Positions 2,287 to 64,000 of a stretch of DNA of 64,000 bases are shown piece after piece; position 1 is the stretch's first letter; every line of letters begins with the position of its first letter. The stretch is from the UHGV virus genome UHGV-1451962. One strand, 5' to 3'. The notes under the pieces are model-generated. The model did no database searches. It had not been told where the DNA came from and saw nothing but the letters and a program-made list of their open reading frames with translations. Source of the stretch: a virus. Made by a program: the position numbers and the translations under genes.

Positions 2287-2511
2287 TACCTTAAATTTTT
2301 AAAAAGTCAAATGCGGACTTTGACTTGACAAATTAAAAAAAATTTTTTTCCGAGCGGGTGAGCCACTTTCGGGAAAAACCCCGGCCATATGAAGGGTCGC
2401 TAGAAGTCTAGAAAAATCGCCATATGCTAGTGGAAAGGGGATTTCGGGCTGTGACCACTGTCCACAGCCCGCCACTCCTTATATATAGTATACCATAAAA
2501 CCAGCCTTATG

Positions 2512-5140: not shown

Positions 5141-5197
5141 TTACATCACCTTTTTCGTCAAAATTAGCTCTTTTTTAAGTGAAAAGGGCCAAAAACT

Positions 5198-5587
5198 TTA
5201 CTTTTTGGCCCTTTTCTGAACTAAAGTCAACTCAAAGGCGTTATTATCAACAGAAAAAGCAATCTGTCGCTCAGGATTTGCAATTTTTACATCACAAATC
5301 CCCAAAGATTCAAGAAAACCTGCAAGTTCCGCAATCAAATTTGCTTTAGTGGGGTTCTCTTTTCTTTCTCTTTTAATAGGGGTCTTGCGGTCATGCTTCT
5401 TAGTATGTTGCCCGGTAATAGTATACTTCTTTGCTACCTTTTGTTGTTCCTCGGTCAAATCCCATTCATGCGGGATGCCTTTATCAACCTCGCAGTCTGC
5501 CTTATAGATTTCTACTGCTTTTTCATAACTGCACTTGATGCCAGCTTGGATTCTTGCGATTGCTTCTTTTGCTTTGTCCAAAAACAT
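5198..5587 (-). CDS. hypothetical basic protein, paralog of 9346..9708
   Basis: shares spaced motifs with the 9346..9708 product (D.G...L.EEQ.KV.KK ... NPER.I ... F..TL). Confidence 0.5.
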   Translation of the reverse strand: MFLDKAKEAIARIQAGIKCSYEKAVEIYKADCEVDKGIPHEWDLTEEQQKVAKKYTITGQHTKKHDRKTPIKRERKENPTKANLIAELAGFLESLGICDVKIANPERQIAFSVDNNAFELTLVQKRAKK

Positions 5588-5611
5588 ACCTCCCCTCTAG
5601 GGAAGAGGGCC

Positions 5612-6034
5612 TTAGCCCTCTTCCTCTTCTACCACGGCCTGCGCCTTGTAGAAATGGGCAATACCCTTGTGGGTATCCTTGTAAGCAATACCCTCAGAGA
5701 CAAGAGCCTTGCACATAGGGGCGATACGCTGGGGAGTCAAATCTTCCAGTTCAGGAATGGCCTTGCGGAGCATTGCAATGGTCATACCATCTTCGGTCAA
5801 CTGCTCGGCAATCAGAGCCTTAAAATGCTCATTCTCAGTCTGGCGGGCAGTCTGCTTGCGGGAATTAGAACCCTTCTTAGCATCCAGCAGGCGAATTTCA
5901 TTGGAGAGGAAATCGGTCAGACCCTCAAAGTCAAAACCTTCGTCCTCACGGCCTTCGCACAGTTCCACCAGCTCAATCAGAGACTGGAAACGCTCACGCT
6001 TAGTAATTCTCTTGTTAGTATTTTCCATAAACAC
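5612..6034 (-). CDS. hypothetical protein, paralog of 9768..10124
   Basis: C-terminal region 'TARQTENEHFKALIAEQL...IPELEDLTPQRIAPMCKALVSEGIAYKDTHKGIAHFY' parallels 'TATQTENARLIEVIADTL...IPELNGFTPQKVGPMLKKLVETGRATRDTNKGKAYY'. Confidence 0.5.
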   Translation of the reverse strand: MFMENTNKRITKRERFQSLIELVELCEGREDEGFDFEGLTDFLSNEIRLLDAKKGSNSRKQTARQTENEHFKALIAEQLTEDGMTIAMLRKAIPELEDLTPQRIAPMCKALVSEGIAYKDTHKGIAHFYKAQAVVEEEEG

Positions 6035-6369
6035 CTATCTCGCTTTTGGTTTTTAAGAGTTTGTCCTTCTCTTGATTACATGCTTATTATAGCATGTTTC
6101 TTGGGGTTTGTCAAGAGGTTTCGCAAACTTTTCACAAGATTTACGGCTTCCAGAGCATGTTGGGCAATAACAATTACCACATGATATAAGACTTACCACT
6201 TGATGTATTTCGTTTACTTCCTATACTTTCTCACAGGTCGGCCGCCCTAGGATTTCTTGGGCTACTTCCTCCTGACATTATTTATTATATCAGATTTCAC
6301 CCAAATTGCAATAGGCAAATTGTACAAAAAGCGGGATTTTCCTCAAATAAATTTTGTGCAGTTTAACTC

Positions 6370-6398
6370 TTGACAAATTTTGTGCCGCGTGGTATAAT
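6370..6398 (+). promoter_or_regulatory. near-consensus promoter on the plus strand, opposite to the surrounding genes
   Basis: TTGACA 6370-6375, 17-nt spacer, TGgTATAAT with TATAAT at 6393-6398. Confidence 0.5.
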
Positions 6399-6404
6399 TG
6401 AAAT

Positions 6405-6513
6405 TTCGGCGCTCCACAGTCGTGGGCGCCGCGCCATTGTATCATAAAGCTGCGGTTTTGTCAATAGGCAAAATGTACAAAAAAATGAGGGAAAAATCCC
6501 TCATTTCCTTTTC
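6405..6513 (+). ncRNA. candidate small RNA / antisense transcript
   Basis: downstream of promoter 6370-6398: GC-rich hairpin 'cggcgctccacagtcgtgggcgccg', no credible ORF, then hairpin 'atgagggaaaaatccctcat' (6486-6505) followed by a T-rich stretch. Confidence 0.25.
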
Positions 6514-6777
6514 CACTTTGTCAAGATCAGCTTTCAGACTGTCAAGTTCCTGCTCTTTGTCCATAGTTTTTAATTCAAGCGCAGTCTCTAAATAACGTAA
6601 GTAATTCTGATAGTCATCGGTGCTATACTCAGAAAAAGTGAACCCTTTTCCTCTGAACTTATCTCTTACACGAGTGACACTTTTATGACATTGAACACGT
6701 TCTTCATACACAGCATAACTATCAGTTCCTTTCTTAATTTCTGTATTTATTATAGCGTCTTTGCTTTGAATCGTCAA
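6442..6777 (-). CDS. doubtful ORF (true product probably shorter)
   Basis: ORF runs through its own promoter/RBS cassette (6725-6795) and uses a TTG start; first in-frame ATG is far downstream. Confidence 0.2.
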   Translation of the reverse strand: MTIQSKDAIINTEIKKGTDSYAVYEERVQCHKSVTRVRDKFRGKGFTFSEYSTDDYQNYLRYLETALELKTMDKEQELDSLKADLDKVEKEMRDFSLIFLYILPIDKTAAL

Positions 6778-6805
6778 TAGACAAATTGCACAAAGTGGAA
6801 GATTT

Positions 6806-7339
6806 TTATAACTTCATTCCATTTGTTTGAAATGCTTTAGCTACTTTATCAAAGCAATCTTCCATTTTAAGAATTTCCTGCTTCTTACTTTCTATCTGAA
6901 AAAGAAGATTTACATAAACTTCCTGAAGGTATTCCCGATACCCACTAGCATTGAAGGCGAAAGTATCTCGATAACAAATAGTAATATCACTTCTATTATA
7001 GTGGATGCCTAATTCTTCCCCACCATTAGCCGCGATCAGAGCTTCCTTTGCCGCCACCAGCAGCTCTCTGTATTCCTTATACTTCATAAGAAGCTCGCCG
7101 GCACGGTTTGTTACATAAGGAGCAGTTTCTCTGCATCTAGGCCCATTTGTATCATAGACCGGTGCTTTACCAACCACTTTGATGATATTGTGGTTGAAGA
7201 GAGTTTCCGCCTTAGAGCGTCCCTTACCACGAGCCGCATCATATTTATCAGAGGTGAAGGGTTTATCCCCGAACAGTTTAACAACCTGAGCAGCACCTTC
7301 CAGAACGCTATTGCAATTTTTGATAGAGAACATAATCAT
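6806..7339 (-). CDS. hypothetical protein
   Basis: ORF track start at 7342 is TTG; ATG at 7339 sits 5 nt after the RBS (complement of 'cctttcct'); promoter at 7366-7394. Confidence 0.55.
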   Translation of the reverse strand: MIMFSIKNCNSVLEGAAQVVKLFGDKPFTSDKYDAARGKGRSKAETLFNHNIIKVVGKAPVYDTNGPRCRETAPYVTNRAGELLMKYKEYRELLVAAKEALIAANGGEELGIHYNRSDITICYRDTFAFNASGYREYLQEVYVNLLFQIESKKQEILKMEDCFDKVAKAFQTNGMKL

Positions 7340-7365
7340 CAATTCCTTTCCTGTTTTCTGTTGTT

Positions 7366-7394
7366 ATTATATCATGCTTTTGCTTACTTGTCAA
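7366..7394 (-). promoter_or_regulatory. sigma-A-type promoter with extended -10 (TTGACA-N17-TGaTATAAT)
   Basis: -35 is complement of 'tgtcaa' 7389-7394; -10 is complement of 'attata' 7366-7371; TG at 7373-7374. Confidence 0.6.
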
Positions 7395-7611
7395 GAGATT
7401 TTATCAAATTGCTTGTATCTGTTTCAGTAAGAATTTTTTCCATCTCTTTGACAGATAAGCTGTCTACTTTTCTCTGGAAATCTTTGAGGAGTAAATCATC
7501 CCCACAGATTTCTTCCTCAATATCTACCCACTCTTTGTAAACATGGAGTAGTAAATATTCATCAGGTTCCATCAAAGAACCGCAGACAATGTAGCCATCA
7601 TCCAAAAGCAA
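7384..7611 (-). CDS. hypothetical protein
   Basis: 75-aa ORF. Confidence 0.35.
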   Translation of the reverse strand: MLLDDGYIVCGSLMEPDEYLLLHVYKEWVDIEEEICGDDLLLKDFQRKVDSLSVKEMEKILTETDTSNLIKSLDK

Positions 7612-7986
7612 ACCAGCGTGGACAACCCCTTCAAGGTCGAGAAATAATACCTACTTTGTCATTTGCAAAACTCCCTTTTGTTTTATTTTATCAGAGCGGC
7701 GCCTACTCTGACAGCTTTCTTGTTGTTTATTACTTTGGAGCAATAGAAAAAGCTAAGAAAATCTCCGCATCACTATATGGTTTTTATTTCGTTCATGTAA
7801 AACAACAGTGCAAACAAAATTCTGTAATAATTGGGTTAGCATGGCGGCGGGTGCCTGGTAATATCTATCATTCGCTTTACTCCTTTTTATTTATTTATTT
7901 GCCACTAAAACACTTTATCACCTCCCTTGACTGTACCTGTATTATATCACAGAAGAAAAGCTTTGTCAAGCCTTTTTTGCAATTTT

Positions 7987-8385
7987 TTAATCCTTAATAA
8001 GTTCTTTGGGAATAGTCCAACCAACGGCTCGGCAATAAGCAATAACCATACCAACCGCGGGAATGAAAGTGTCATTTGTTGTGGCTGTTGCTTTTCCAGT
8101 CAGGCGATGATTATTGCTGATAACTTCGCAAACAGTAGTTCTGCCCTCAATACTGAACTTTGCAGAAGTGCCATATAACATATGAGCATTGTCCTCTAAC
8201 CACTTCTGAGCAATAGAAGCCTTGCTTTCTGCGGATTGAACATACTTACGGAGAATAATTCCATCCGAACTGGTGCAAATTTCCAGTGGGTCTCCCTCCT
8301 GAATGTGCATGTTGCGGCGGATCTCCTTGGGGATGACCACCCGGCCCAGGTCGTCGATGCGGCGCACGATACCAGTAGTTTTCAT
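7987..8385 (-). CDS. AbrB-family transition-state-regulator-like DNA-binding protein
   Basis: N-terminus 'MKTTGIVRRIDDLGRVVIPKEIRRNMHIQEGDPLEI...GIILRKY' closely matches the AbrB N-domain (MKSTGIVRKVDELGRVVIPIELRRTLGI...IILKKY). Confidence 0.75.
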   Translation of the reverse strand: MKTTGIVRRIDDLGRVVIPKEIRRNMHIQEGDPLEICTSSDGIILRKYVQSAESKASIAQKWLEDNAHMLYGTSAKFSIEGRTTVCEVISNNHRLTGKATATTNDTFIPAVGMVIAYCRAVGWTIPKELIKD

Positions 8386-8452
8386 ATTTTTTTACTTCCT
8401 TTCTTTTACTGTATTTGTATTATACCATACAGTCCGGTCTTTGTCAAGCCTT

Positions 8453-9097
8453 TTATCTATCAAAACCGCTAAAATCCAAGATGATTGGGCGGTCATTTTT
8501 GTAACCAATGTTGGATTCGTGCAGGTCATTGATTCTGTTCTCAATGACAAACTCGCAAAGAGTTTTGCAAAGTCTTTTGCCATAGATAACAAGAGCCATC
8601 TTAGCCCAAAGAGGGTCTAAGTTTCTTGCATAGCGCCCATTAGGTGCCGCTTTCTTGAAACACTTGCCCATAAGCTGCGCTTTCTGGTCACTTGCGGTTT
8701 TGACCTTAGCCTTGTACTTCTTAAAGGTTTGATAGGAACAGCCACAAACCGCAAAGTCAATTTTCTCTTGCTTGATGAAGTTAATCCCATCTATCGTGCA
8801 GAAAAGCTCGGTCTTGGGGAAGAACATGCCCAAACCTGCTTTAACAGCTTTATTGTACATGTCAACCTCTTTAAGAGCTTCGTCATCAGTAAACTCATCA
8901 GGGTCAGAGTATGTCCACTTGATAACAAAGTCGGCTTTGTGAGGGATGAGACAAATTTTGCTGGAACCATAATCTATAGCGGCTTCACTTCCAAGCTTGA
9001 TTTCTCTCATTCTGCTCTGAATTTCCCAATCGGTCATGGAAGGGTCAATCCTTAACTCTTCAAGCCAATGAAGAACAGTCTGTTCCATCTTTGTCAT
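8453..9097 (-). CDS. hypothetical protein
   Basis: strong RBS (complement of 'ctcctccc' 9103-9110) precedes ATG at 9097 (MTKMEQ...); ORF track start 9166 is probably too far upstream. Confidence 0.5.
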   Translation of the reverse strand: MTKMEQTVLHWLEELRIDPSMTDWEIQSRMREIKLGSEAAIDYGSSKICLIPHKADFVIKWTYSDPDEFTDDEALKEVDMYNKAVKAGLGMFFPKTELFCTIDGINFIKQEKIDFAVCGCSYQTFKKYKAKVKTASDQKAQLMGKCFKKAAPNGRYARNLDPLWAKMALVIYGKRLCKTLCEFVIENRINDLHESNIGYKNDRPIILDFSGFDR

Positions 9098-9123
9098 GTT
9101 ATCTCCTCCCTTACTGTGATTAT

Positions 9124-9152
9124 AGTATAACACGGCAGGTCTTATTTGTCTA
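9124..9152 (-). promoter_or_regulatory. promoter (TAGACA-N17-TGtTATACT)
   Basis: read on the minus strand from 9152 down to 9124. Confidence 0.4.
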
Positions 9153-9211
9153 TTGGCGAAATGCACAAATTCGGAATTTTTGTCTGCCTAGTTTTTATGC
9201 ACTTTTGCCCA

Positions 9212-9240
9212 TTGACAAAAGTCGGATTACCTGGTATAAT
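9212..9240 (+). promoter_or_regulatory. near-consensus promoter on the plus strand, opposite to the surrounding genes
   Basis: TTGACA 9212-9217, 17-nt spacer, TGgTATAAT with TATAAT at 9235-9240. Confidence 0.5.
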
Positions 9241-9246
9241 TGAAAT

Positions 9247-9351
9247 GCGGCAGCGCTTGACCATGCGCGGGCCGCCAAACATTTACCATTGAGAAGTATT
9301 GGGCAAAAAAGAAAACCGGCCTATAAAAATAAGCCGGTTTTGTTATTATTT
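9247..9351 (+). ncRNA. candidate small RNA
   Basis: GC-rich hairpin 'gcggcagcgcttgaccatgcgcgggccgcc', no ORF, ends at bidirectional terminator hairpin 9312-9341 (aaaaccggc/gccggtttt) plus T-run. Confidence 0.25.
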
Positions 9352-9708
9352 TCTAGGAGCGCTTAATGTAATTTTGAAACGTCTTTCATTAAAAACTATC
9401 TCAATTTCTCGCTCTGGGTTATTGATGGTAGTTTCAATTTCAAGTTGTTCAAGAGATTCCGCAATAATCTCAATCAAGCGATGTTTGTCATTGTCAACCT
9501 TGCGCTGTCGGGGAGCATTCATAGTATATTTGCCTTTCTCTTTGCCGGATAACCGCATTTTCTTTTCTACTTTCTTTTGTTCATCAGTAAGTGGGAAAAG
9601 GTCTGCACCTTTATCTATTGCTTCATCATCAGCAATAACTGCCAAAGCTTGTTTTCTATCAAGGTCTAACACCTTCTGAAGATGTTTAACCCTAGCTTCA
9701 TCTATCAT
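9346..9708 (-). CDS. hypothetical basic protein, paralog of 5198..5587
   Basis: 120-aa ORF; see paralog motifs. Confidence 0.5.
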   Translation of the reverse strand: MIDEARVKHLQKVLDLDRKQALAVIADDEAIDKGADLFPLTDEQKKVEKKMRLSGKEKGKYTMNAPRQRKVDNDKHRLIEIIAESLEQLEIETTINNPEREIEIVFNERRFKITLSAPRK

Positions 9709-9732
9709 TAAACACCATCCTTTTTGAGAAAA

Positions 9733-9757
9733 TAAAGAGGGGCATTAAGCCCCTCTT
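9733..9757 (-). terminator. intergenic hairpin between 9768..10124 and 9346..9708
   Basis: stem aaagaggggc/gcccctcttt with 5-nt loop. Confidence 0.4.
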
Positions 9758-9767
9758 TATTTAATTA

Positions 9768-10124
9768 TTACACCATAGTGTAGTATGCCTTGCCCTTGTT
9801 GGTGTCACGAGTGGCTCGGCCAGTTTCAACCAGCTTCTTGAGCATGGGGCCAACCTTCTGAGGGGTAAAACCGTTCAGCTCAGGAATGGTCTTGGTAATG
9901 TCGGAAATGGTGAAAGCTTCGCCCTTGGGCAGAGTGTCAGCAATCACTTCAATCAGACGTGCGTTCTCAGTCTGAGTTGCAGTAGGCTTACCGCTACCAC
10001 GGCTCTTATTCTCCTGCTGATGAAGCAGAATCTCAATCTTGGCACGAACATCGGCAGGAATCTCGCAGTTGTCCAGAACATACTGAAGAGCGCCCTTGTT
10101 AGTAATCTTCTTCTCGTTAGTCAT
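9768..10124 (-). CDS. hypothetical protein, paralog of 5612..6034
   Basis: 118-aa ORF; see paralog motifs. Confidence 0.5.
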   Translation of the reverse strand: MTNEKKITNKGALQYVLDNCEIPADVRAKIEILLHQQENKSRGSGKPTATQTENARLIEVIADTLPKGEAFTISDITKTIPELNGFTPQKVGPMLKKLVETGRATRDTNKGKAYYTMV

Positions 10125-10233
10125 AATATCAATTCCTTTCTGTGCGGTAGGTCGCTACCCTAATTGTTAAGGAAGTGGGGAGGGTTTTCTCTCCCTCACT
10201 TCTCTTATATTATATCATTTTCCTTTTGTTTTG

Positions 10234-10941
10234 TCAAGCGGTTTTTTGATTTTCAAAAAGTTTTTTCCGCATTTTCTTCTTTTGCCGATAGCAGTAAATC
10301 ATAATCTCCCGCTCAATCCGCACATCGTCAAGACCTTTATGTTCTTCCTGAAAAGTGGGGTCTTTGATGATGAATCTATACAGATTTTCTGCTGTTGCTG
10401 AGAGTTTACCAGTTTTGGTTAAGAAACCGTGTTGTTCACAGAACCTTTTATAGGTAGGCATCTTTAGAATAACATCTCTTGCCATTTTGAGAGTATCCCA
10501 AATATCGGTACCATAGGGGAACCAATACCGATATTTACTCTTAGTAGTCCAGCGTTGAAGTAAATTCAATGCGTTCAGGTCGAATCTTGCATTGTGGGCG
10601 ACTACCTCTGTAATACCATATTCTGCCATGTCTGCAAGCATAGCTTGTCGAATCTGGTAAGTGTTAGCTATTTGTCGGATGCCCTGTCGAATATCTTCCA
10701 GATACTGGGGAATCTTTTCCGCATAATAGGCGGATTTCATAAGCTCACTTTCATCAAAGAAAATATCTCGATTAACAAAGGATTGTTCCTTGTAGATATT
10801 CCCTCTTGTATCCATAACACACCACCCGCAATCATAGACAAGAACTGAGGTCATGTCTAATCGGCCTTTTTGGTCAGTGATGGTGTTCGCTGTCTCAGTG
10901 TCCAGAAGCAGAACGTAATGTCTGCGCTTGTCAATGCTCAT
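10234..10941 (-). CDS. DnaQ-like (DEDDh) 3'-5' exonuclease
   Basis: Exo I motif 'LLLDTETAN' and Exo III motif 'VVAHNARFDLNAL'. Confidence 0.65.
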   Translation of the reverse strand: MSIDKRRHYVLLLDTETANTITDQKGRLDMTSVLVYDCGWCVMDTRGNIYKEQSFVNRDIFFDESELMKSAYYAEKIPQYLEDIRQGIRQIANTYQIRQAMLADMAEYGITEVVAHNARFDLNALNLLQRWTTKSKYRYWFPYGTDIWDTLKMARDVILKMPTYKRFCEQHGFLTKTGKLSATAENLYRFIIKDPTFQEEHKGLDDVRIEREIMIYCYRQKKKMRKKLFENQKTA

Positions 10942-10974
10942 GTTGCATCTACCTCTTCCTTAATTTCTGTACTT

Positions 10975-11003
10975 ATTATATCAGATTTTTTCTCATTTGT
11001 CAA
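10975..11003 (-). promoter_or_regulatory. sigma-A-type promoter with extended -10 (TTGACA-N17-TGaTATAAT)
   Basis: -35 is complement of 'tgtcaa' 10998-11003; -10 is complement of 'attata' 10975-10980; RBS complement of 'cctcttcc' 10953-10960. Confidence 0.6.
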
Positions 11004-11022
11004 GAACTTTTTGGCTCCCTGC

Positions 11023-11478
11023 TTAAAGCAGGGAAGCCAAGAAATCAATGATGTCACAAGTTTCAGGATTGACAGTTTCTCCCAAATGCCAACTGTCACG
11101 AACTTTCTTATTATCATCAATAAGAATTGCCTTAGATGCTTTTCTACGAACAGCATCCGCTTTAGTGGCTCCATACTTTAGACCATGAAAGTGGTCATAG
11201 GGGAAACCCCATTTCAAGAGCCAAGCCTTTTTAGCTTCTCGCACAGCCTTTGCATACTCAGGGCTGCTTTCTTTAGAAAGCCAAGTGATGATTGCAATCT
11301 CCCAACCAGCCTGTTTTAACTTGTTAATAAGCTCGTTAAGCTTATCCACGTCCCACATGGGTTTAGCTTCCAGGTAAGGGCTTGTATCTTCCTTCCGCAG
11401 CTTAGACAGCCAACCATTAACCCCATACAGGTCAGCAATAGTGCCGTCCATATCAAAAGCCAACATTTTGTCAGTCAT
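11023..11478 (-). CDS. HAD-superfamily phosphatase / nucleotidase-like protein
   Basis: HAD motif I 'FDMDGTIAD' near the N-terminus; start taken at the MTDK ATG (an in-frame TTG at ~11487 is also possible); ORF track start 11586 runs through the promoter. Confidence 0.55.
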   Translation of the reverse strand: MTDKMLAFDMDGTIADLYGVNGWLSKLRKEDTSPYLEAKPMWDVDKLNELINKLKQAGWEIAIITWLSKESSPEYAKAVREAKKAWLLKWGFPYDHFHGLKYGATKADAVRRKASKAILIDDNKKVRDSWHLGETVNPETCDIIDFLASLL

Positions 11479-11536
11479 AAGTGTCAACTTCTTTCCTTTA
11501 TTTCTATGGTAATTATACCACGGTAAGGCCCAAATG

Positions 11537-11722
11537 TCAAGCCTTAATTTCTTCAATGTCAAGAAGAATTTCACCAGTAGAATCATCTACCAAGTAATAC
11601 ATTGTAGTAGCATACTGAGCTAACCTATGAAAGAAATCCTCTGCCAATGAAAAGGAATCAAAAGGCCCGATAATTTCTTCATCGCCAACATGATAGATAG
11701 AATAAGTCTGCTTCATATGCAA
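11537..11722 (-). CDS. hypothetical protein
   Basis: 61-aa ORF. Confidence 0.3.
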   Translation of the reverse strand: MHMKQTYSIYHVGDEEIIGPFDSFSLAEDFFHRLAQYATTMYYLVDDSTGEILLDIEEIKA

Positions 11723-11731
11723 TACCTCCTA

Positions 11732-11889
11732 TCAAAAGATATGAATGAGAGTTTCATTCCCATTCTCTTCCAGATGACACTCATAGACAGAGCCTTTCTT
11801 GCGGGTTGCGTTCCGCATTGCGATACCCTTGTTATCAAAGTGTATCTGCCAACCATTGGGGAAAACTACCAGCCAGTCACGGTATTCGG
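11732..11889 (-). CDS. hypothetical small protein
   Basis: RBS (complement of 'ggcctccttttg') precedes 'MTEYRDW...'; the longer ORF-track version (to 12124) crosses promoter sequence. Confidence 0.35.
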
Positions 11890-12049
11890 TCATACTTTTG
11901 GCCTCCTTTTGTTTTCTGTAATTATTATAACAAAAATTTTTAAGAAATTCAATAATCAATTTTGATGATGTTTTGTCGCTATACTTTTTATAAACAAATG
12001 CCATTTCGGGATGAATACTTCCGGGTAAAATCACCAAACTTTCCTCTAA

Positions 12050-12115
12050 ATTTTTGTGCAATTTGCGCATTGACAGAATTTCGGCGCACACTGGGAGGTC
12101 ATGGTCGTGTGCGCG
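12050..12115 (+). other. third copy of the GC-rich hairpin element (cf. 6405-6440, 9247-9280)
   Basis: 'gaatttcggcgcacac...gtgtgcgcgccgccgc' shares the 'aatttcggcgc...gcgcc' core with the 6400 element. Confidence 0.3.
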
Positions 12116-12185
12116 CCGCCGCAATTATTATACCATACTTTTGCTTTGTTGTCAATAGATAAATTGAACAAAAAATTTTTATTTA

Positions 12186-12203
12186 TTTTTTTTTTTTTTT
12201 TTT
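12186..12203. repeat. 18-nt homopolymer T tract
   Basis: uninterrupted run of 18 T on the plus strand. Confidence 0.9.
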
Positions 12204-12250
12204 ACTGCTAGAAGCCTAGAAGTTTCATCATATAAGCATATAGCAAAAAT

Positions 12251-12273
12251 AAAAAGGGCCGCAAGGCCCTTTT
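12251..12273. terminator. bidirectional rho-independent terminator
   Basis: 'aaaaagggccgcaaggcccttttt': GC stem gggcc/ggccc, loop gcaa, flanked by A-run and T-run. Confidence 0.6.
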
Positions 12274-12570
12274 CACTTCCAAGTTTTTTCAAGTGGATTT
12301 TTGTTTATTTTACCGGAACCTTAATGGCCCACAAGCTTTCTAAACAGTCAAGCCCTATGTAAGACTCGCTCGCTTTTTCAAAAAGCTTTTTCTCCACTTC
12401 CTCCAAAGTCATGCAGAGATATTCTTCAAAGAAGTCAGGAGAAGCGTCTTTCTGTATCCTCGCAATCATCTCTTTTATTGTTGTTGCTTTGTCATAGGCT
12501 CATTACCATACTGGTCAGAAACTATAATGACGTAAGCATCTTTCTTTATAATAATCAACTCCTTTTCTTT

Positions 12571-12903
12571 TTACCACATGTCAACGTAGTGCTGTTTGTC
12601 ATTGGGATACTTGTGCTTAACAAGCGTGGCACATTCCTCATCATCGGTCGCAAGTCTGAGTTTGCTATCCACCAGAGCCACCAGCTCAGGAGCAGCTTCC
12701 TTGTAAAGAACTTCCAGCAGTTCTTTCAGAGCGCCTTTACCATAATAGCGGTAGTCCTCAGCAGTAATCTTCCAGACCATGATTTTCTCAGGGTCATAAC
12801 CGCAGTTGGGATAGTAGAGAGTCAAGTCTCCATCGTGAAGCACATAAGCGCTTTCATAGTAGGTTGCGGTGTACTGACTGTCGAATAGTTCCTTGTTAGT
12901 CAT
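12571..12903 (-). CDS. hypothetical protein
   Basis: 110-aa ORF with promoter/RBS cassette upstream. Confidence 0.55.
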   Translation of the reverse strand: MTNKELFDSQYTATYYESAYVLHDGDLTLYYPNCGYDPEKIMVWKITAEDYRYYGKGALKELLEVLYKEAAPELVALVDSKLRLATDDEECATLVKHKYPNDKQHYVDMW

Positions 12904-12934
12904 CTTTTGTTTCCCCTTTTTTTATCTTGATTAT

Positions 12935-12963
12935 ATAATACCATAATTTTGAGAAAACGTCAA
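12935..12963 (-). promoter_or_regulatory. promoter (TTGACG-N17-TATTAT)
   Basis: almost identical to the promoter upstream of 3652..4242 ('ttttcYcaaaattatgKtattatataatca'). Confidence 0.5.
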
Positions 12964-13054
12964 TAAGTAAAAATGCACAAATTAAGAATAAAAATTTGTA
13001 CAATACAAACAAAAGAAAAAGGAAGGCCGCAAAACCTTCCTTTTTCACTGCTGT

Positions 13055-13420
13055 TTAGAACAAATCTTGAAGCTGTTGAATAGCTTCATCAATATTGCAC
13101 CAGTTACCAGTGTGTTCATTGAGCACCAAGAGGGCTTCTTCTCCCGGAGTAAGAGAAGGAATTTTACAGTTGAAGCTAATGAAATAGCGCTTGAGCAATT
13201 CAACGGCTTCTTTATTACCATCGCACAAGATAGCAATAATAGGTGCAGGATTAGCTTTAAGGTTGAGCTTGACTTCGCCGAGCTTATCATACAGCTTGAA
13301 GCTATCCTCGCAACGCTTCGCCATTTCTTCCATCTCATGCAAGTTGCAGCTGTCATAGTCCTCAAAAACCTCACCGCAATACTCACAGAAGTAGACTGTC
13401 TTTTTCAACATAAAAATCAT
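13055..13420 (-). CDS. hypothetical Cys-containing (zinc-binding-like) protein
   Basis: 'CEYCGEVFEDYDSCNLHE' near the N-terminus. Confidence 0.45.
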   Translation of the reverse strand: MIFMLKKTVYFCEYCGEVFEDYDSCNLHEMEEMAKRCEDSFKLYDKLGEVKLNLKANPAPIIAILCDGNKEAVELLKRYFISFNCKIPSLTPGEEALLVLNEHTGNWCNIDEAIQQLQDLF

Positions 13421-13477
13421 CCTTTCTTTTATTATGGTCTTATTATACCACAGACTAAGCTTCTTGTCAAGACTTTT

Positions 13478-13650
13478 TTACAAACATTCAACCACTTCCC
13501 AAATCTGCTGATACTCTTCATAAGAGTTGGCGAAATCATTCTTACTGGCTTCATCGCGGCCCTCTTCTTTAATCCATTCCTTCCACTTGTCAAGGATCGC
13601 CTTGTTAGCTTTGTCCATCTTAACACCAATGATCTTCTTGATGTTCTTCA
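13478..13650 (-). CDS. hypothetical small protein
   Basis: RBS (complement of 'cccctttcctttt') precedes ATG of 'MKNIKKIIG...'; ORF track start 13726 overlaps the promoter. Confidence 0.4.
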
Positions 13651-13893
13651 TTTGTTTTATCCCCTTTCCTTTTGTAATTATATAATAACACACTTGCCGC
13701 AATAGGTCAATAGGCATACTGCACAATTCGGGATCCCAATTCTCTCTCTAAATTTAGCTATTTTGACTATTGATTTTGAGCAGACTTTGTGGTATACTGA
13801 TTCGGAAAGTTGCCTTGTAAAACGAAGACATTCGTTTATAACAAGTATGTTAAACAAAAGGAAAGAGATAAGCTAAGCTTACCTCTTCTCCTA

Positions 13894-14109
13894 TCATACT
13901 ACTTCATACTCATCATACTTCTTAGCCAAGACTAATACTTCCTGATATATCTTCTTTGGTATAATGTAAGCCCTCCAACGCAGGTCGCCATTAGGTTTGA
14001 AAGAAGTCTTTCTCCAACCAAAGAAGCATCTCCATAGAAAGCTTTTGCCCTCACAATACATTTCAATAAAATCTATCATACATTCATTGTCTATCCAGTA
14101 TTTTTTCAT
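13894..14109 (-). CDS. hypothetical protein
   Basis: 71-aa ORF. Confidence 0.35.
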   Translation of the reverse strand: MKKYWIDNECMIDFIEMYCEGKSFLWRCFFGWRKTSFKPNGDLRWRAYIIPKKIYQEVLVLAKKYDEYEVV

Positions 14110-17141: not shown

Positions 17142-17714
17142 TCAGCCATAACAAAAGTACGTGGTAGACTTCCACCAACCTGTGTCAACTTTACTCACCT
17201 CATAAGTTCCTTTTCCTTGGCGAAATTGCGCTTGATAAATTACATTTTTGGGGCAATTAACTCTACCTTCAAGCGCCAATCTAGCATTATCATAACATCT
17301 TTGTGAAATTTGCGGTCTTGCAGTTACGTACCATGCGGCATACTGCCGAGGCTGCATAACAACAGCCTTAACAGTACTGGGGAATCTGGAATCTGCAACT
17401 CTATTCAAAACTACTTGCGCCACTAATTGCTGATGGCGATCCGGGCAATTACCAGCTTCATAATGAATAACAGTAGCAAGAATCCGCAAATCTTCATCGG
17501 AATAAGTTTTAGTGTTATATACTTCCCACCAAACTTCTTTAGCTCTTGTTATAATAGGGTCGCTTTCCGGCAAACCCATAGAACGTGCAGTTTCTGCGAT
17601 ATTATGCGCCTTATCTAATTGCGCTGCTTTTTCAGCAGTAGTGAAACTGCACATAGTTAAAATACAAAAAATACTTGCGGCGATGAGGCCGCATTGTCGA
17701 AACTTTCTTTTCAT
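17142..17714 (-). CDS. SleB/CwlJ-like cell-wall hydrolase (candidate endolysin)
   Basis: signal-peptide-like N-terminus plus 'VIHYEAGNCPDRHQQLVAQVVLNRVADSRFPSTVKAVVMQPRQYAAW', typical of Hydrolase_2 / SleB. Confidence 0.6.
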   Translation of the reverse strand: MKRKFRQCGLIAASIFCILTMCSFTTAEKAAQLDKAHNIAETARSMGLPESDPIITRAKEVWWEVYNTKTYSDEDLRILATVIHYEAGNCPDRHQQLVAQVVLNRVADSRFPSTVKAVVMQPRQYAAWYVTARPQISQRCYDNARLALEGRVNCPKNVIYQAQFRQGKGTYEVSKVDTGWWKSTTYFCYG

Positions 17715-17727
17715 TTATTTCTCTCCT

Positions 17728-18327
17728 TTAATTTTTGTAATAGCCGTTAGCTAAACCTAACTCAATGGCTTTATCCGCAGGAATATACCATTCAGCTTTT
17801 CTGTTAATATAATCATCTAATGTCTCTTGCTCAATAGCAGAAGTAGAAGTAATTTCTTTACAAATAATTTTTTGTAATCTTAGTGTTTCATCTAATTCCT
17901 GTTTAATGCCCGCAGTTTTATCCCAAATCCACGAAGCAATATCATGGAACATTAAAGTTGAATGTTCACCTACATATCTCTTATGACCTGCAAGATAAAT
18001 CCAAAAACCCATACTCATACTAGAACCAATAGAAATAGTATACACCGGGGTTTTACTCTGTTTAATGACATCTACTAAACTAAGTCCATCATAAACACTA
18101 CCACCAAAACAGTTAATAAAGAGTTTAATAGGTTCTCTTTTCCAATCTTTATAATCTTCTTCTTTGCAATCGTCATCATAATTAATTTTCATAATTGTCT
18201 CAATAATATTTTTAACTGATTCTGCTTTAATATCTTCGCTTAGAAAAATATTGCGGTAGGTTGGAATAGGTTTACTCATAATCTTCAAAATCCTCCTCAT
18301 TCTCTTCTTCAAAAGAAGAACTTTCAA
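17728..18327 (-). CDS. ClpP-family serine protease (possible prohead protease)
   Basis: 'FINCFGGSVYDGLSLVDVIK...PVYTISIGSSMSMGFWIYLAG...LMFHD' resembles ClpP/S14 motifs. Confidence 0.5.
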   Translation of the reverse strand: MKVLLLKKRMRRILKIMSKPIPTYRNIFLSEDIKAESVKNIIETIMKINYDDDCKEEDYKDWKREPIKLFINCFGGSVYDGLSLVDVIKQSKTPVYTISIGSSMSMGFWIYLAGHKRYVGEHSTLMFHDIASWIWDKTAGIKQELDETLRLQKIICKEITSTSAIEQETLDDYINRKAEWYIPADKAIELGLANGYYKN

Positions 18328-58965: not shown

Positions 58966-59402
58966 TATATAATATGATAATAAGGTTTTTCTTCATCAAA
59001 GATTTTCCATCTAAGAAAATCATCTAAAATAATTCCTATTAGACCTAGAATAAACCAAAGACAACTAAAAGATAAACATATTTGTCCTTTATAATTAAAA
59101 GGTAAATGTGAATAATCCCAAATATTAAGTTGTAATTGAATGTTTAAAATATATCCAAATAAAAATTCTAAACTTGTTATAATTGCGGTTCCAATTAATC
59201 CTTGAGCCAATAAAGACCAATTCCAAGGAATATTTTCATTTAAGCTACCTAAAATTAAAAAAGATAAACCGCCTAAGATAAACATTGACCAATGAGTATT
59301 TCCTGAATGTATATATGTTTTGTAAACAAATTCAATTAACCAGTAAATACTTCCGCCAATCAAAAATAATATAGAATTTCTAAAAAAAGAATTAATTTTC
59401 AT
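58965..59402 (-). CDS. multi-pass membrane protein (holin-like or other)
   Basis: 145 aa with about 4 hydrophobic helices. Confidence 0.4.
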   Translation of the reverse strand: MKINSFFRNSILFLIGGSIYWLIEFVYKTYIHSGNTHWSMFILGGLSFLILGSLNENIPWNWSLLAQGLIGTAIITSLEFLFGYILNIQLQLNIWDYSHLPFNYKGQICLSFSCLWFILGLIGIILDDFLRWKIFDEEKPYYHII

Positions 59403-60051
59403 ATTTTAATTCTATGGCTTTAATTTCCTTATAATTTTTAGCAGTATAAATTTGTGTTTTATATTGTTGCATTTTTTTATAATAAGGATAAACAAAATCA
59501 GAAATAGCTAAAGCTAAAGCAGTCAAATTTTCAACTGTCCAAGATGTACATTCTTCTTGGCGAGCATGCCATTCTAATCTAGGATTCTCTGCTCCAGCCT
59601 GAACTGCCATAGAATATTGATTCATATTTAGGCTAATTTCTGATTGATCTTCTTCTGTAACTCCATATTGCTTTCCATCAATCCAAGTCAAAGGATTATT
59701 AATGAGGAAATTAGCGAAAGCTTTTTTATTTTCTTCTTGTTTCATTTTTTGATATTCTTCTAAAGAATAGTAATATGTTAATTCATTTTTTTCATTATCA
59801 TATTTATAAAAATTAGGTTCATAATCTTCTGGAATATTACCATCAAAAGATAAGATTCTTACTGCATCAATAGAACCTGTCATATCTGAATTAGCCAAAA
59901 TGAAATGGCTATTGCAATCTGAGCCTATTACTCCTGTAGCTTCACCTTCCGAGCAAGCAATGACAATACTTGGGTTGGATTGTAATTTGATGTAGCGGAT
60001 TTCCGCAAGGATATCGACTACTATATTTTCTCTATTGATTAATAAATACAT
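59392..60051 (-). CDS. hypothetical protein downstream of the DGR reverse transcriptase
   Basis: 219-aa ORF whose start overlaps the RT stop. Confidence 0.4.
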   Translation of the reverse strand: MYLLINRENIVVDILAEIRYIKLQSNPSIVIACSEGEATGVIGSDCNSHFILANSDMTGSIDAVRILSFDGNIPEDYEPNFYKYDNEKNELTYYYSLEEYQKMKQEENKKAFANFLINNPLTWIDGKQYGVTEEDQSEISLNMNQYSMAVQAGAENPRLEWHARQEECTSWTVENLTALALAISDFVYPYYKKMQQYKTQIYTAKNYKEIKAIELKYEN

Positions 60052-61307
60052 TATAATATTTCAACTCCTTTAAATAATGAATGGAAATAATTATCAAGAT
60101 TTTGTATAATATAAAAAGTAGTACCTTTATTTATATGTTCTCTAAAACCTCGATATGATTCTTGAATTTCTATATCAGTTATTTTACCTTGTAGCCAAAG
60201 TTGGTGCATTTTTCTCATTTTTCTATATTGTCGCTTTATTTTCTTTTTAAATGGAGTTTGAATAATTTTATTCGTATTAGTTAAATAAAAATCCCATTTT
60301 AAATATTTAAATGGATTATGTTTATCCGAACGTCTTTTATGAGGATAATTATTTTTATCTAGTTTTATTGGACTAATTTTAATTATTTTAGTTTTTCTTT
60401 TGTTACATTTTAAATGTATTTTATTTAATTCATTTTCAATTTTATTAAGACATTCTTTTAAATAATCTTTGTCATTATGCAAAATATAAATATCGTCCAT
60501 ATAACGTCCATAATATTTTAAATGCAAATGCTCTTTTGCATAATGGTCAATTCCATTTAATGCCAATAAAGCTAATAATTGAGATGCTTGACTACCTAAA
60601 CCTAAACTTTTATGATTAAATTCATAATAAGTACAATTTTTATAAAATTGTTTAGGATAAATTATCTTATATTTTTGTTTTTTGATGATATAGTATTGTT
60701 TATTAGGAATAGGAACTGTATCTTTTGTGACTGAAAAACAAAAGGTATCAATAATATAATCAATTAATTTAAATACTCGTTTTTCTTTAATATAATGTTT
60801 TGCCATTTGCTTTAAAGAATTATGGTCTATTGAATCAAAAAATTTTTGAATATCAATTCTTAAACCATAAAAAGATTTTCCTAAACCATATGTTCTGTGC
60901 GCTGCTTGTAAATGTTTACGCACTTCTAGCAAAGCAAAATCAATTCCTTTTCCTTTTAATGTAGCACAATTATCATAAATAAATTTTGGAGTTAGTTCTG
61001 GAATAAGAACTTGCGAACATAATGTATTTTGTGCCAATCTGTCATAAATATGGCACGCTCTTATATCTCTGGGTTTGCCCCGCTCAATTATACTAAAACT
61101 GTTAAAAACTAATTGTTCATAACTGTCATTTTCTAATTGTTCTTTAAGCGTTAAGATGTTATTTAATCTATTTTCTTCAAAATTAACTGTACTATCTTTC
61201 CATCTTACGTTTCGGCAAATAGAATAAGAAGAATCATAAAAAGCGTCAAAATTACAAAAACGCTGGAAAAGATTTTCTTCTATAAAAAATTCTCCTTTTT
61301 TTATCAT
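60051..61307 (-). CDS. DGR reverse transcriptase
   Basis: RT motif 5 'YGRYMDD' and 'LGLGSQ' (SQ motif typical of DGR RTs); sits next to TR/VR repeats showing adenine-specific mismatches. Confidence 0.85.
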   Translation of the reverse strand: MIKKGEFFIEENLFQRFCNFDAFYDSSYSICRNVRWKDSTVNFEENRLNNILTLKEQLENDSYEQLVFNSFSIIERGKPRDIRACHIYDRLAQNTLCSQVLIPELTPKFIYDNCATLKGKGIDFALLEVRKHLQAAHRTYGLGKSFYGLRIDIQKFFDSIDHNSLKQMAKHYIKEKRVFKLIDYIIDTFCFSVTKDTVPIPNKQYYIIKKQKYKIIYPKQFYKNCTYYEFNHKSLGLGSQASQLLALLALNGIDHYAKEHLHLKYYGRYMDDIYILHNDKDYLKECLNKIENELNKIHLKCNKRKTKIIKISPIKLDKNNYPHKRRSDKHNPFKYLKWDFYLTNTNKIIQTPFKKKIKRQYRKMRKMHQLWLQGKITDIEIQESYRGFREHINKGTTFYIIQNLDNYFHSLFKGVEIL

Positions 61308-61584
61308 GCGGTGCTAGATTGTGTGCTCTGACACGCACATCCGCAATCTTAATTAATTATCTGTATAGATAAAAGGTTAAATTCTCCTTAAATGAAAGCT
61401 ATCTATTATAATCTAAGTCTTTTATTTAATATTTCCTCTCCTTCTTGGTTTTAAAACCAATGCGTCCAGAAAATACCAAAATAGATGAGTTATAACATAG
61501 GTTATAATTTTCTGGGGTAACACTTAGTCGTCTCAGTCGATGTCGCCTGCGGCTCCATCACCAGAGACAGTTAGAGTTCTCATC

Positions 61585-61693
61585 TAATCGGGCGCGAGGT
61601 AATTGTTGTTGTTGTAGTTGGTATTGTTCGCATTACCATCAGAGTTGACATTGCACACATTGTTCGTGTTGTTCGAGTTGTAGTAGCGAGACC
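61585..61693 (-). repeat. DGR template repeat (TR)
   Basis: aligns to 62383-62491 at constant offset 798; in coding (minus) sense it reads GSRYYNSNNTNNVCNVNSDGNANNTNYNNNNYLAP, with 17 AAC/AAT codons. Confidence 0.85.
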
Positions 61694-61726
61694 CGCGATA
61701 TTTTAGAATTTAACCAAATAAAAAAA

Positions 61727-62191
61727 TTATTTGTATCGCTGAGAATAAATTAGATTATCTCTATTTATTCTATCAAGAAGATTTTGTTTTAATTTGTAAG
61801 TAAGTTTAGCAACATATTTGAAAGATTTATTTTTCTTTTTATTATTTAACCCATATTCATAAATACATAAATCTAATTGCCTTAAAATTGAATCACAATA
61901 TCTTATTGATTTATTAAAGTAATCTGCTCTTTCAACTAAAGTTTTTTTATTTTTTAGATTGATTAAACTAGCAGAGAAAGCATATCCATGTGCGTTTTTG
62001 GCACATTTTAAAATATCTGCACCAAAAGCTGAATAATAGTATGGATTACCAAGAATACCTGGTTTAATATGAGAACCATCATCTAATTCTTGATATGGAC
62101 GAACTAAAATTAATACTTGATGGACTAACTTTCTTGCATCATTTAAATAATCATTTTTAGATTGATGCCTATCTTTTTTTCTTACTGACAA
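61727..62191 (-). CDS. avd: DGR accessory protein (Avd-like) candidate
   Basis: 154-aa basic protein between target gene and TR (canonical avd position); TTG start preceded by strong RBS 'aaaggagg'; assignment by position, not motif. Confidence 0.45.
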   Translation of the reverse strand: MSVRKKDRHQSKNDYLNDARKLVHQVLILVRPYQELDDGSHIKPGILGNPYYYSAFGADILKCAKNAHGYAFSASLINLKNKKTLVERADYFNKSIRYCDSILRQLDLCIYEYGLNNKKKNKSFKYVAKLTYKLKQNLLDRINRDNLIYSQRYK

Positions 62192-62315
62192 ATTAAAAAC
62201 CTCCTTTAAATAACGTACAAGAAATATTATACCAGAAAATTTTTAAAAAGTCAAAGAAAAAAAATTTTTAGAAAAAATTTTTTTCCCAGAAAAGGTGAAA
62301 GCATTTTTATACTAT

Positions 62316-62341
62316 GGCATTGGCCCTTTTGGGCCAATGCC
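62316..62341 (-). other. perfect hairpin 41 bp downstream of VR
   Basis: 11-bp stem ggcattggccc/gggccaatgcc, 4-nt loop. Confidence 0.7.
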
Positions 62342-62369
62342 AATATAACCTTACTGTATAACTTTACAG

Positions 62370-63998
62370 TTATCCAATAACGAAAGCGGGCGCGAGGTAA
62401 CGGTAGTTGGCGTAGTAGGTAAAGTCCGCACCACCATCAGAGTCGACACGGCACACATAGCCCGTGTAGTCCGAGTAGTAGTTGCGAGACCGCTCCCAAT
62501 ACCATTTGGAATCTCCTGAACTGTTACCATTAGCATCTTGAATGTTTTTTATACGGGAGCTGTCACTTGTGTAATAATCATAAGCAGCATTATATCCTTT
62601 AGTACATTCTGCATTGGAAACAGTAGAATTAGCAGTGCTGATTGGAGAATAACTATCTAATCCCATTTCTCTCTCAGAAGGAATCCAAACAGTTTCGTTA
62701 TTATAACTAACATTAGCACTTCTATTATCATCCCAATTATCGCAAGTACCTTTAGATACTGTTTTTATAGATGCTTTAGCAGCACAAGCATTATAAAAAT
62801 TTTGACAATAACTTCTAGCATTAGAACCAATCCATTGTGCGCTATTATCACCAAAAGTAGTCATATTCGGCAAGAGATAAACACTATGAAAAGCTAAAGT
62901 TTTATCTCCATCTTTGTCATAGCCAATACAACGCATTGTAACAGCATTTGCTCCTAAAACATTAGTAGATAAATTCATCTTTTTAGTTTTACCAACTAAA
63001 GCTTGACGTTCTGAAGCAGAAGAATTGTTAAGCCAAGACTTTAAGCCAGCCCACCAAGAAGCATCTCCCGCAGCACTCTCATTTCCCCAAGTCCAATATG
63101 TAGCAGTAGCAGTAATTTTTTTATTCGCGGGAGTTGTATAATTGGTACTGGCTGCTATTGATACAGTAATAGTAGCAGTTCCCGCGGTTGTACCATTGCC
63201 TTTAATGGTAATTGTTTTACCGCTTACTGTTGCTGAAGCCACATTAGAATTAGTAGAAGTTACAGAAATTGTACCAGTAGAATTAGTGGTCACAGTAACT
63301 TTTACACCAGTAGAATAATTAGATGCGTCAATAGAAACAGTAGAAGTGCTTAGACTTAATGTTCCTGTTGCTTTTTGAATAGACCAATCAACATTTTTCG
63401 CGGTTGTTGTCTTATCAGGCCATCTGTAATTATTTTTAGGAGTAAAAGTAGCTGTATATTTTCCTGCATTAATTCCCGATGTAGTTCCTCCAATAGTCAT
63501 GTAACTTGTATTATAATTTGACCAATTTGGACTTTGCGAATTGGCGTTATAAGTTAAAGTTCCAGTTTGAGAAGGAATAGGAACTGTTTTTCTTTCTACT
63601 GTTACAGAAAAAGTAGTAGTTTTAGTAATACTATTTTCTGTATAAGAAACAGTAATTGTTTGAGTACCAACTGTATTTAAAACAGAAGGTGAAGTTGTCC
63701 AACCAGAAACAGTAGCGGTTTTACCATCAGAATAAGTGGCAGTAACAGACATTCCGGCAGATTCAAATGTCTCGCCATATTCATAAATTGTCTTAGTTGG
63801 TTTTGTGCTTGTGATGCTGGTTAGTGCATGGATAACAGTAACTGCTTGCTCGGCGGTACAAGTAACTCCTCCTTCAGAGTAAGTAATAGTAACTTTAGTT
63901 ACTCCATCAGTTAAAGGAGAAGGTGTTACAGTATATCCAGTTACCGCAGTAGAAGAAACAACAATATTATCAATGGCATAATTGGCAGTTATAACCAT
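62370..63998 (-). CDS. DGR target (variable) protein with Ig-like repeats; N-terminus probably beyond the window
   Basis: Big_2-like segments (e.g. 'GTISVTSTNSNVASATVSGKTITIKGNGTTAGTATITVSIAAS'); C-terminal 40 residues encoded by VR; stop TAA is complement of 62370-62372. Confidence 0.8.
   Translation of the reverse strand: MVITANYAIDNIVVSSTAVTGYTVTPSPLTDGVTKVTITYSEGGVTCTAEQAVTVIHALTSITSTKPTKTIYEYGETFESAGMSVTATYSDGKTATVSGWTTSPSVLNTVGTQTITVSYTENSITKTTTFSVTVERKTVPIPSQTGTLTYNANSQSPNWSNYNTSYMTIGGTTSGINAGKYTATFTPKNNYRWPDKTTTAKNVDWSIQKATGTLSLSTSTVSIDASNYSTGVKVTVTTNSTGTISVTSTNSNVASATVSGKTITIKGNGTTAGTATITVSIAASTNYTTPANKKITATATYWTWGNESAAGDASWWAGLKSWLNNSSASERQALVGKTKKMNLSTNVLGANAVTMRCIGYDKDGDKTLAFHSVYLLPNMTTFGDNSAQWIGSNARSYCQNFYNACAAKASIKTVSKGTCDNWDDNRSANVSYNNETVWIPSEREMGLDSYSPISTANSTVSNAECTKGYNAAYDYYTSDSSRIKNIQDANGNSSGDSKWYWERSRNYYSDYTGYVCRVDSDGGADFTYYANYRYLAPAFVIG
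62383..62491 (-). repeat. DGR variable repeat (VR) at the 3' end of the target gene
   Basis: 109-bp match to TR with 23 mismatches, 22 at TR adenines (coding sense); encodes '...SRNYYSDYTGYVCRVDSDGGADFTYYANYRYLAP' followed by 'AFVIG' and the stop. Confidence 0.85.
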
Positions 63999-64000
63999 TC

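Follow-up and report, generated by a model that had tools for sequence, protein, structure and literature searches.

A BPP-1-type diversity-generating retroelement, very probably functional or very recently functional, in a large human-gut phage

The end of a 64,000-nucleotide stretch of the virus genome UHGV-1451962 (the window, meaning the whole stretch that was analyzed) carries a diversity-generating retroelement (DGR), all of whose parts lie on the minus strand. Read 5' to 3' on that strand, these are the 3' part of a target gene (62370-64000), which crosses the window end and which contains the variable repeat (VR; 62383-62491); an avd-like gene (61727-62191); a noncoding template repeat (TR; 61585-61693), located between the avd-like gene and the gene that follows; and an intact gene for a reverse transcriptase (RT; 60051-61307). 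This anatomy was observed directly. The gene order and strand arrangement, target-avd-TR-RT, are identical to those of the annotated BPP-1 cassette (mtd-avd-TR-brt), as had been proposed in a sequence-only reading of the window. That reading had also described the element as complete, a description upheld by the adenine-specific mismatches, the DGR-type RT motifs, the BPP-1 gene order, the C-type-lectin target, and a predicted Avd-fold model. We conclude with high confidence that the locus is a functional or very recently functional BPP-1-type DGR in a gut phage.

The TR and VR aligned over 109 nucleotides (nt) without gaps, at a constant offset of 798, and differed at 23 positions. Twenty-two of these mismatches fall where the TR has an adenine on its coding (minus) strand, which appears as T on the plus strand. 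Expressed as rates, 22 of the 39 TR adenines differ in the VR compared with 1 of the 70 other TR bases (Fisher P = 1.6e-11). The ungapped alignment and its adenine bias had been pointed out in the sequence-only reading; both were reproduced on re-alignment, and the adenine specificity is a direct observation. On the coding strand, the adenine-site mismatches comprise 10 A-to-G, 8 A-to-T, and 4 A-to-C changes. The final A-to-C mismatch (61589) marks the border of the homologous stretch, immediately past a GC-rich block described below, and the sole nonadenine mismatch is T-to-A on the coding strand. Translated in the target frame, the TR reads SRYYNSNNTNNVCNVNSDGNANNTNYNNNNYLAPD. Most of its adenines lie in 15 AAY (Asn) codons, 14 of which are altered in the VR to Y, D, G, R, F, or A codons. 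These replacement residues are the ones listed previously, while the counts that went with them (17 Asn codons, 13 of them replaced) are corrected here to 15 and 14. A scan of both strands of the 64-kb window, which scored nonadenine positions only, found no second VR and no other copy of the TR.

The VR encodes residues ~507 to 541 of the 542-amino-acid (aa) open reading frame (ORF) present in the window, which make up the final ~35 residues of the target protein (SRNYYSDYTGYVCRVDSDGGADFTYYANYRYLAPA), and it stops 13 nt short of the stop codon. This ORF had been taken to start at 63998. The gene instead continues past the window, and its full length of 587 aa was read from contig L002, which is 99.98% identical. 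The target contains Big_3 Ig-like repeats and a C-terminal DUF6273 domain of the C-type-lectin fold. When the 245-aa C-terminal fragment was searched, DUF6273 (PF19789) was matched over residues 87 to 244 at 35.4 bits (threshold, 23.5), and the VR occupies the C-terminal end of this domain, its last ~35 residues. DUF6273 domains with a VR at the C terminus form a class of DGR targets in Faecalibacterium phages (PMC11792537), and DUF6273-type C-type-lectin-like domains are also DGR targets in phages nd4 and nd12 (PMC10743442). The target is a probable tail receptor-binding protein with Ig repeats.

The RT is a protein of 418 aa that matched RVT_1 (E = 7e-15) and phrog_1423 (E = 3e-75). Its top match among Protein Data Bank (PDB) entries was 8ub7_A, the RT of the BPP-1 DGR (E = 3.7e-13), whereas a group II intron RT reached only 1.8e-4. 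Comparison with BPP-1 Brt by BLASTP gave 23% identity over 284 residues (E = 2e-17). The two motifs reported in the sequence-only reading, YGRYMDD and LGLGSQ, were both found in the ORF. Residues L237-G-S-Q-A-S-Q243 aligned to IGSLTSQ of bRT and residues Y269-M-D-D272 aligned to YMDD; all were invariant or nearly so in 22 homologues. Where other RTs have QG, this RT carries the DGR-type [ILV]GxxxSQ motif. Among 50,697 GenBank phage records, the closest phage RTs were 27 to 32% identical and came from gut Bacillota phages with DUF6273-target DGRs.

We also considered whether the RT might belong to another class (group II intron, retron, or defense RT), with the 109-nt repeat being an unrelated duplication. 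The top NCBIfam match was indeed a group II intron RT/maturase model (TIGR04416; E = 3e-24), but this match reached 85.7 bits against a cutoff of 300 and covered residues 238 to 408 only. The retron model NF038233 scored 28.7 bits (cutoff, 235), the DRT models were likewise far under their cutoffs, and a search of the entire window with Rfam at gathering thresholds found no group II intron, retron, or other RNA family. In addition, the top solved relative is a DGR RT, and an adenine bias of this strength (P = 1.6e-11), recurring in more than 30 loci, cannot stem from ordinary duplication. On these sequence comparisons, this alternative is scarcely credible, and the earlier assignment of the RT to the DGR type rather than to group II introns or retrons stands.

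The small ORF in the avd position (61727-62191) encodes a protein of 154 aa that is basic, as had been noted, with a pI of 9.8 and 30 K and R residues compared with 14 D and E residues. Its AlphaFold model (pLDDT, 91.8) is a predicted four-helix bundle that is nearest to the Avd/PF05635 fold and superposable on Avd. A profile search of 1.84 billion protein representatives recovered only 33 relatives, and two of the weakest of these gave sub-threshold full-length matches to Pfam bAvd/PF05635 (E ~0.02). We name the protein Avd-like from its position, its charge, and its predicted fold, since membership in the family is not demonstrable by sequence. The modeled folds of this protein and of the target are counted among the findings. 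Upstream of the avd-like gene lies a promoter-like site (62226-62254, minus strand; TTGACT-17-TATAAT with a TG extension; 11 of 12 positions), which is the best in the region. It is no more than a match to the consensus, and such sites were in total no more numerous than in shuffled sequences.

The 277-nt spacer between the TR and the RT gene is conserved blockwise in the family. A covariance model of the spacer was built from eight relatives, with the window sequence left out and kept as the test. The model gave a single match in the window, at 61454-61601 on the minus strand (36.6 bits; E = 9e-8). This Sp-like structured RNA, an analogue of the BPP-1 "Sp," lies directly 3' of the TR. It includes a long-range stem, P1, in which UUAGAUGAG pairs with CUCAUCUA (61579-61589 with 61482-61489); an interrupted hairpin, P2, directly after the TR (61530-61568); and two conserved elements, CCCCAGAA (61510-61517) and UUCUGGACGCA (61461-61471; UUCUGGAYGCA in RNA), all on the minus strand. 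Single-sequence folds allow the UUCUGGAYGCA element to pair with the TR at its GC-rich 3' end. Across 17 distinct family sequences, 94.7% of the cells of the Sp-like domain were paired and 12 pairs showed compensatory changes, whereas slid controls were 28 to 44% paired.

When RNAduplex was applied to the flanks of the TR, the duplexes returned were long and uninformative; a directed complement search then gave an 11-bp helix. Its 5' strand, GGUUAAAUUCU (61705-61715, minus strand), lies 12 to 22 nt 5' of the TR, and its 3' strand is AGAAUUUAACC (61375-61385, minus strand), such that the helix encloses both the TR and the Sp-like domain. The helix is perfect in the window, with 96.4% of cells paired over 10 lineages and compensatory changes at 6 of the 11 pairs. 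Two further minus-strand hairpins lie closer to the RT gene: one at 61307-61345, which ends at the RT start codon and shows compensatory changes at 10 of 12 pairs in 13 sequences, and a small covarying hairpin just upstream of it (61359-61370). A 15-mer scan of IMG/VR for additional RNA diversity returned mostly chance matches and no lineage clearly distinct from those already known. The BPP-1 RNA has a stem-loop just 3' of the TR and a duplex formed by sequences 5' and 3' of the TR, and RNA elements of this kind have been predicted in 207 other DGRs (bioRxiv 10.1101/2023.10.23.563531). The covariation of the helices was observed directly, and it supports the presence of a structured RNA 3' of the TR and a duplex bracketing the TR, as in the BPP-1 ribonucleoprotein.

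The 3' end of the VR contains a GC-rich block, CCTCGCGCCCG (62387-62397, minus strand), which is a candidate core of the initiation of mutagenic homing (IMH) sequence. An identical copy ends the TR (61589-61599), the TR/VR homology stops directly after the block, and relatives carry CCTCGCGCCSG or a close variant. Downstream of the VR is a hairpin with a perfect 11-bp GC-rich stem and a 4-nt loop (62316-62341, minus strand; the fold of the 106-nt stretch has z = -5.6). Four close relatives retain this stem, with AAAA, TTTT, or TTTC as the loop, as though the palindrome had flipped. We regard it as a candidate target-site hairpin or cruciform; such a structure is needed for BPP-1 homing (PMC3240598). 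The possibility that the hairpin is a typical terminator was rejected, as it has no T-tract and no terminator-like sites were found.

The diversity of the VR was assessed between samples, among natural relatives, rather than within one sample. A search with the full target recovered proteins that are 82 to 93% identical overall, with the differences concentrated in the last ~35 residues. Contigs L084 to L087, which are close relatives from other samples, each have a VR that differs from the others and from that of the window. Contigs L001, L084, L085, and L087 share the TR of the window exactly, and that of L086 departs from it at 2 nt. In the four contigs L084 to L087, the TR/VR differences located at TR adenines number 22 of 22, 23 of 23, 25 of 25, and 22 of 23. 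When the five VRs were compared, 30 of the 39 TR-adenine columns varied but only 2 of the 70 others did. Diversification of the VR under one TR was thereby observed directly, and the earlier suggestion that the element has been active is borne out by these five VRs, whose TRs are identical or, in L086, 2 nt apart. In L086, the TR change T9 to G is also found in the VR; this is consistent with TR-to-VR copying, a direction that sequence alone leaves unfixed. The same pattern extends to more distant loci. All 27 of the 27 IMG/VR relatives (RT, 57 to 64% identical) have adenine-specific TR/VR pairs, and among 11 loci whose TRs are almost the same, variation affects 36 of 38 adenine columns compared with 2 of 65 others. 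Six independent contigs (L001, L008, L009, L018, L021, and L030) begin inside the VR or a few bases from it, which suggests that VR heterogeneity in those samples caused assembly breaks.

Differences in the VR might alternatively arise without reverse transcription, through recombination among target alleles combined with diversifying selection. Tail-fiber tips are recombination hot spots, and the 300 nt before the VR also differ between some relatives, at identities of 80 to 98%. Recombination and selection would not, however, restrict changes to the adenine sites of a separate noncoding repeat, as in the 30/39 versus 2/70 split, and they would not keep the TR invariant. The probability of this explanation is negligible. 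A separate observation concerns TR position 24 (61670), which is A in the TR and T in all five VRs, giving Tyr in each; the TR of L086 itself has T there. This suggests either selection for Tyr or an ancestral T at the site.

Several results weigh against a functional BPP-1-type element. The Avd-like protein had no match to the Avd Pfam families (PF22296 and PF05635) at E <= 5, nor did 18 of its homologues. Searches with the protein against NCBIfam, PHROGs, and PDB sequences gave nothing useful, the 18 homologues likewise lacked Pfam, NCBIfam, and PDB sequence matches, and alignment of its family profile to bAvd by hhalign was not significant (probability, 0.7%). Because four-helix bundles are common, the match of the predicted model to the Avd fold is only moderately specific. 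The RNA alignments represent only ~7 independent lineages, one alignment had been fitted to the model, and the upstream strand of the 11-bp duplex was chosen by best-complement search. The hairpin downstream of the VR is unrecognizable in distant relatives and lies 42 nt past the end of the VR homology. Two other assemblies of the same phage, L002 and L003, have exactly the VR of the window. The RT gene itself varies in length near its start. The poly-A tract that follows the RT ATG (ATG, 61305-61307; tract, 61296-61302; minus strand) has seven residues (A7) in the window, L001, L002, and L085, eight (A8) in L084 (L084:6830) and L086 (L086:6829), and five (A5) in L087 (L087:4682), among RT genes that are ~97 to 99% identical. 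The A8 and A5 variants place the RT ATG out of frame in 3 of 7 contigs, with codon 91 being the next canonical in-frame start. The RT gene of L087 (L087:4682-5938; 98% RT identity) has, in addition to its A5 tract, an in-frame TAG at codon 15 and TAA at codon 211. Because the ATG is out of frame in three relatives and L087 has internal stops, the RT, judged from these gene sequences, is not constantly maintained in the lineage of the window. L087 probably represents a decaying RT beside an earlier-diversified VR. The A8 and A5 contigs are all Logan assemblies, and homopolymer error may be the source of the tract variation.

Some of these results bear on a different account of the locus, in which the DGR is now inactive in this genome and the TR/VR differences record past activity only. 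The identical VR in three assemblies of the phage would fit such an account, as would the close relatives with frame-disrupting poly-A variants at the RT start and the one with internal stops. The one nonadenine TR/VR difference, which is private to the window VR when compared with those of L084 to L087, would fit drift after the last homing event. In the window, on the other hand, the RT ORF is uninterrupted and retains every catalytic motif, the Avd-like gene and the TR are intact, and so are all of the RNA helices. Lineages whose identity is otherwise ~96% show perfect conservation of the TR, and the three assemblies with the same VR may come from one or a few samples. We consider present inactivity quite unlikely and favor a functional or very recently functional element; because L002 and L003 carry the same VR, current activity in the window genome is something that we infer and did not see.

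By analogy with BPP-1, we infer transcription, priming, cDNA synthesis, homing, and a receptor-binding role for the element, as follows. A transcript from upstream of the avd-like gene would carry avd, the TR, and the ~280-nt structured spacer. The 11-bp duplex, which joins sequence just 5' of the TR with sequence ~200 nt 3' of it, and the stem-loops 3' of the TR would fold this RNA round an RT-Avd complex. The RT would then copy the TR into cDNA, misincorporating at template adenines, and the cDNA would replace the VR, guided by the GC-rich block common to both 3' ends and perhaps also by the DNA hairpin downstream. Because most TR adenines lie in the 15 AAY codons, ~15 surface positions at the tip of the C-type-lectin fold would be randomized without new stop codons, and receptor specificity would be changed.

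In addition to gene order, the element shares with BPP-1 the adenine-specific TR/VR differences and the placement of the VR at the C terminus of a C-type-lectin-fold protein that, in the window, is the probable receptor-binding protein. The BPP-1 RT is the closest solved relative of the window RT, with IGxxxSQ and YMDD common to both, and an Avd fold is common to the BPP-1 accessory protein and, in a predicted model, to the Avd-like protein of the window. A GC-rich block ends the TR and VR of both, and a DNA hairpin, in the window a candidate target-site structure, lies downstream of the VR (PMC3240598). Both also have an RNA stem-loop just 3' of the TR and a duplex across the TR (bioRxiv 10.1101/2023.10.23.563531). 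Unlike BPP-1, whose RT has 328 aa, the window encodes an RT of 418 aa that is 23% identical and has an insertion of ~40 residues before motif 4 and a C-terminal extension. The Avd-like protein has 154 aa rather than 128 and lacks detectable sequence similarity to its BPP-1 counterpart. The spacer between the TR and the RT gene is 277 nt compared with ~144 nt, the gap between avd and the TR is 33 nt compared with 0, and the window hairpin stands 42 nt from the end of the VR homology. The target consists of Ig repeats and DUF6273 and is not Mtd. The family RNA model left the BPP-1 spacer unmatched, its best hit (12.8 bits) falling inside avd; the RNA sequences of the two systems are not homologous.

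DGRs with the target-avd-TR-RT architecture are common in gut phages. Like the window, Faecalibacterium phages Lelie, Roos, and Pioen, the "tentaclins" of nd4 and nd12, and Roseburia phage Shimadzu have DUF6273 C-type-lectin-fold targets; in the Faecalibacterium phages, the VR also lies at the C terminus of DUF6273, and the protein has Ig-like repeats. These gut Bacillota phages differ from the window in that their RTs are only 27 to 32% identical and there is no nucleotide match. The window phage is also far larger (~137 kb, with a 2,871-aa tape-measure protein), and its Avd-like protein forms a small separate sequence family, of which the 1.84 billion proteins include 33 representatives. Closer to the window are uncultivated gut phages of 75 to 150 kb from IMG/VR, ENA, and Logan (L004 to L030 and L178 to L180). 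They have the same five-gene cassette, target-avd-TR-RT-DUF4376, together with the RNA elements and adenine-specific TR/VR pairs. They differ in RT identity (57 to 66%) and in reading TAG as a sense codon, whereas the lineage of the window uses the standard code.

The element is a well-preserved, ordinary example of a known system, and it leaves the understanding of DGRs unchanged. It adds a fully parsed DGR with divergent parts from a large clade of uncultivated gut phages: the RT is ~30% identical to the best RT from a deposited phage, the Avd-like protein is a sequence orphan, and the spacer is twice the length of that of BPP-1. The natural variants show the element at work. Finally, the RNA scaffold of the BPP-1 cryo-electron microscopy structure gains comparative support from the covariation in these Bacillota-type phages.

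The RT gene is followed on the minus strand by a gene for a 219-aa DUF4376 protein (59392-60051), whose ATG shares 1 nt with the stop codon of the RT gene (TAATG) and which is translationally coupled to the RT gene. Its match to PF14301 (DUF4376) passed marginally, at 25.4 bits with a cutoff of 25. A DUF4376 homologue lies directly after the RT gene in 30 of 30 relatives, even where other neighbors have changed. DUF4376 is a marker of tail-fiber chaperones in Alteromonas phages (PMC10579305). The protein is most likely a tail-fiber chaperone of the target, outside the retroelement proper, and the simplest reading is that the DGR is placed between the receptor-binding protein and its chaperone. 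After the DUF4376 gene comes a gene for a 145-aa membrane protein (PF06541; 58965-59402, minus strand), which is linked to the RT gene in most relatives.

Around the DGR, the window is a phage structural module that includes the 2,871-aa tape-measure protein, and contigs with an identical RT are ~137.5 kb long. The carrier is a ~137-kb siphovirus-like human-gut phage. Host labels from metagenome-assembled-genome bins, which are weak evidence, name Oscillospiraceae, Eubacterium, and Clostridia, and a host within the Clostridia is probable. A megablast search of the cassette against the 50,697 GenBank phage records gave no nucleotide match, and a tRNA scan of the window found no tRNA genes. An alternative genetic code in the window was tried and rejected: reading TAG or TGA as sense barely moved ORF coverage (0.91 compared with 0.92). 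The window's own lineage uses the standard code.

In L004 to L030 and L178 to L180 (RT, 57 to 66% identical), all in-frame stops in the homologous genes are TAG, and reading TAG as sense raised ORF coverage from 0.3-0.85 to 0.82-0.98. These in-frame TAG codons occur in the RT, avd, target, and DUF4376 genes (for example, L011:4940-5003) and often align to Q. A single RT gene contains up to 17 of them, including a run of two or three at the RT N terminus. The database proteins P0018 and P0063 are translated with Q at TAG sites.

Two features raise the possibility of control over RT synthesis. Length variation of the RT poly-A tract may constitute a slipped-strand on/off switch for the DGR, and the multiple in-frame TAG codons in the RT of recoded relatives would tie RT synthesis to a phage suppressor tRNA. 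In both lineages, that of the window and the TAG-recoded one, a covarying hairpin abuts the RT ribosome-binding site. That translational control gates the supply of RT in this phage clade, and thereby switches or times mutagenesis, is a tentative idea that we hold to be unlikely.

Elsewhere in the window, the G+C content at 2000-14000 is 0.36 to 0.43, compared with 0.25 to 0.33 in the remainder. This block has dense small minus-strand ORFs without a Pfam match and many overlapping, spurious ORFs on the opposite strand; it probably holds early genes and differs in composition from the rest. The stretch 17142-18327 encodes a Clp protease and a cell-wall hydrolase. Beyond the window end, a resolvase-family gene (PF00239; L002:3951-4568) lies ~2.6 kb upstream of the target gene on the opposite strand.

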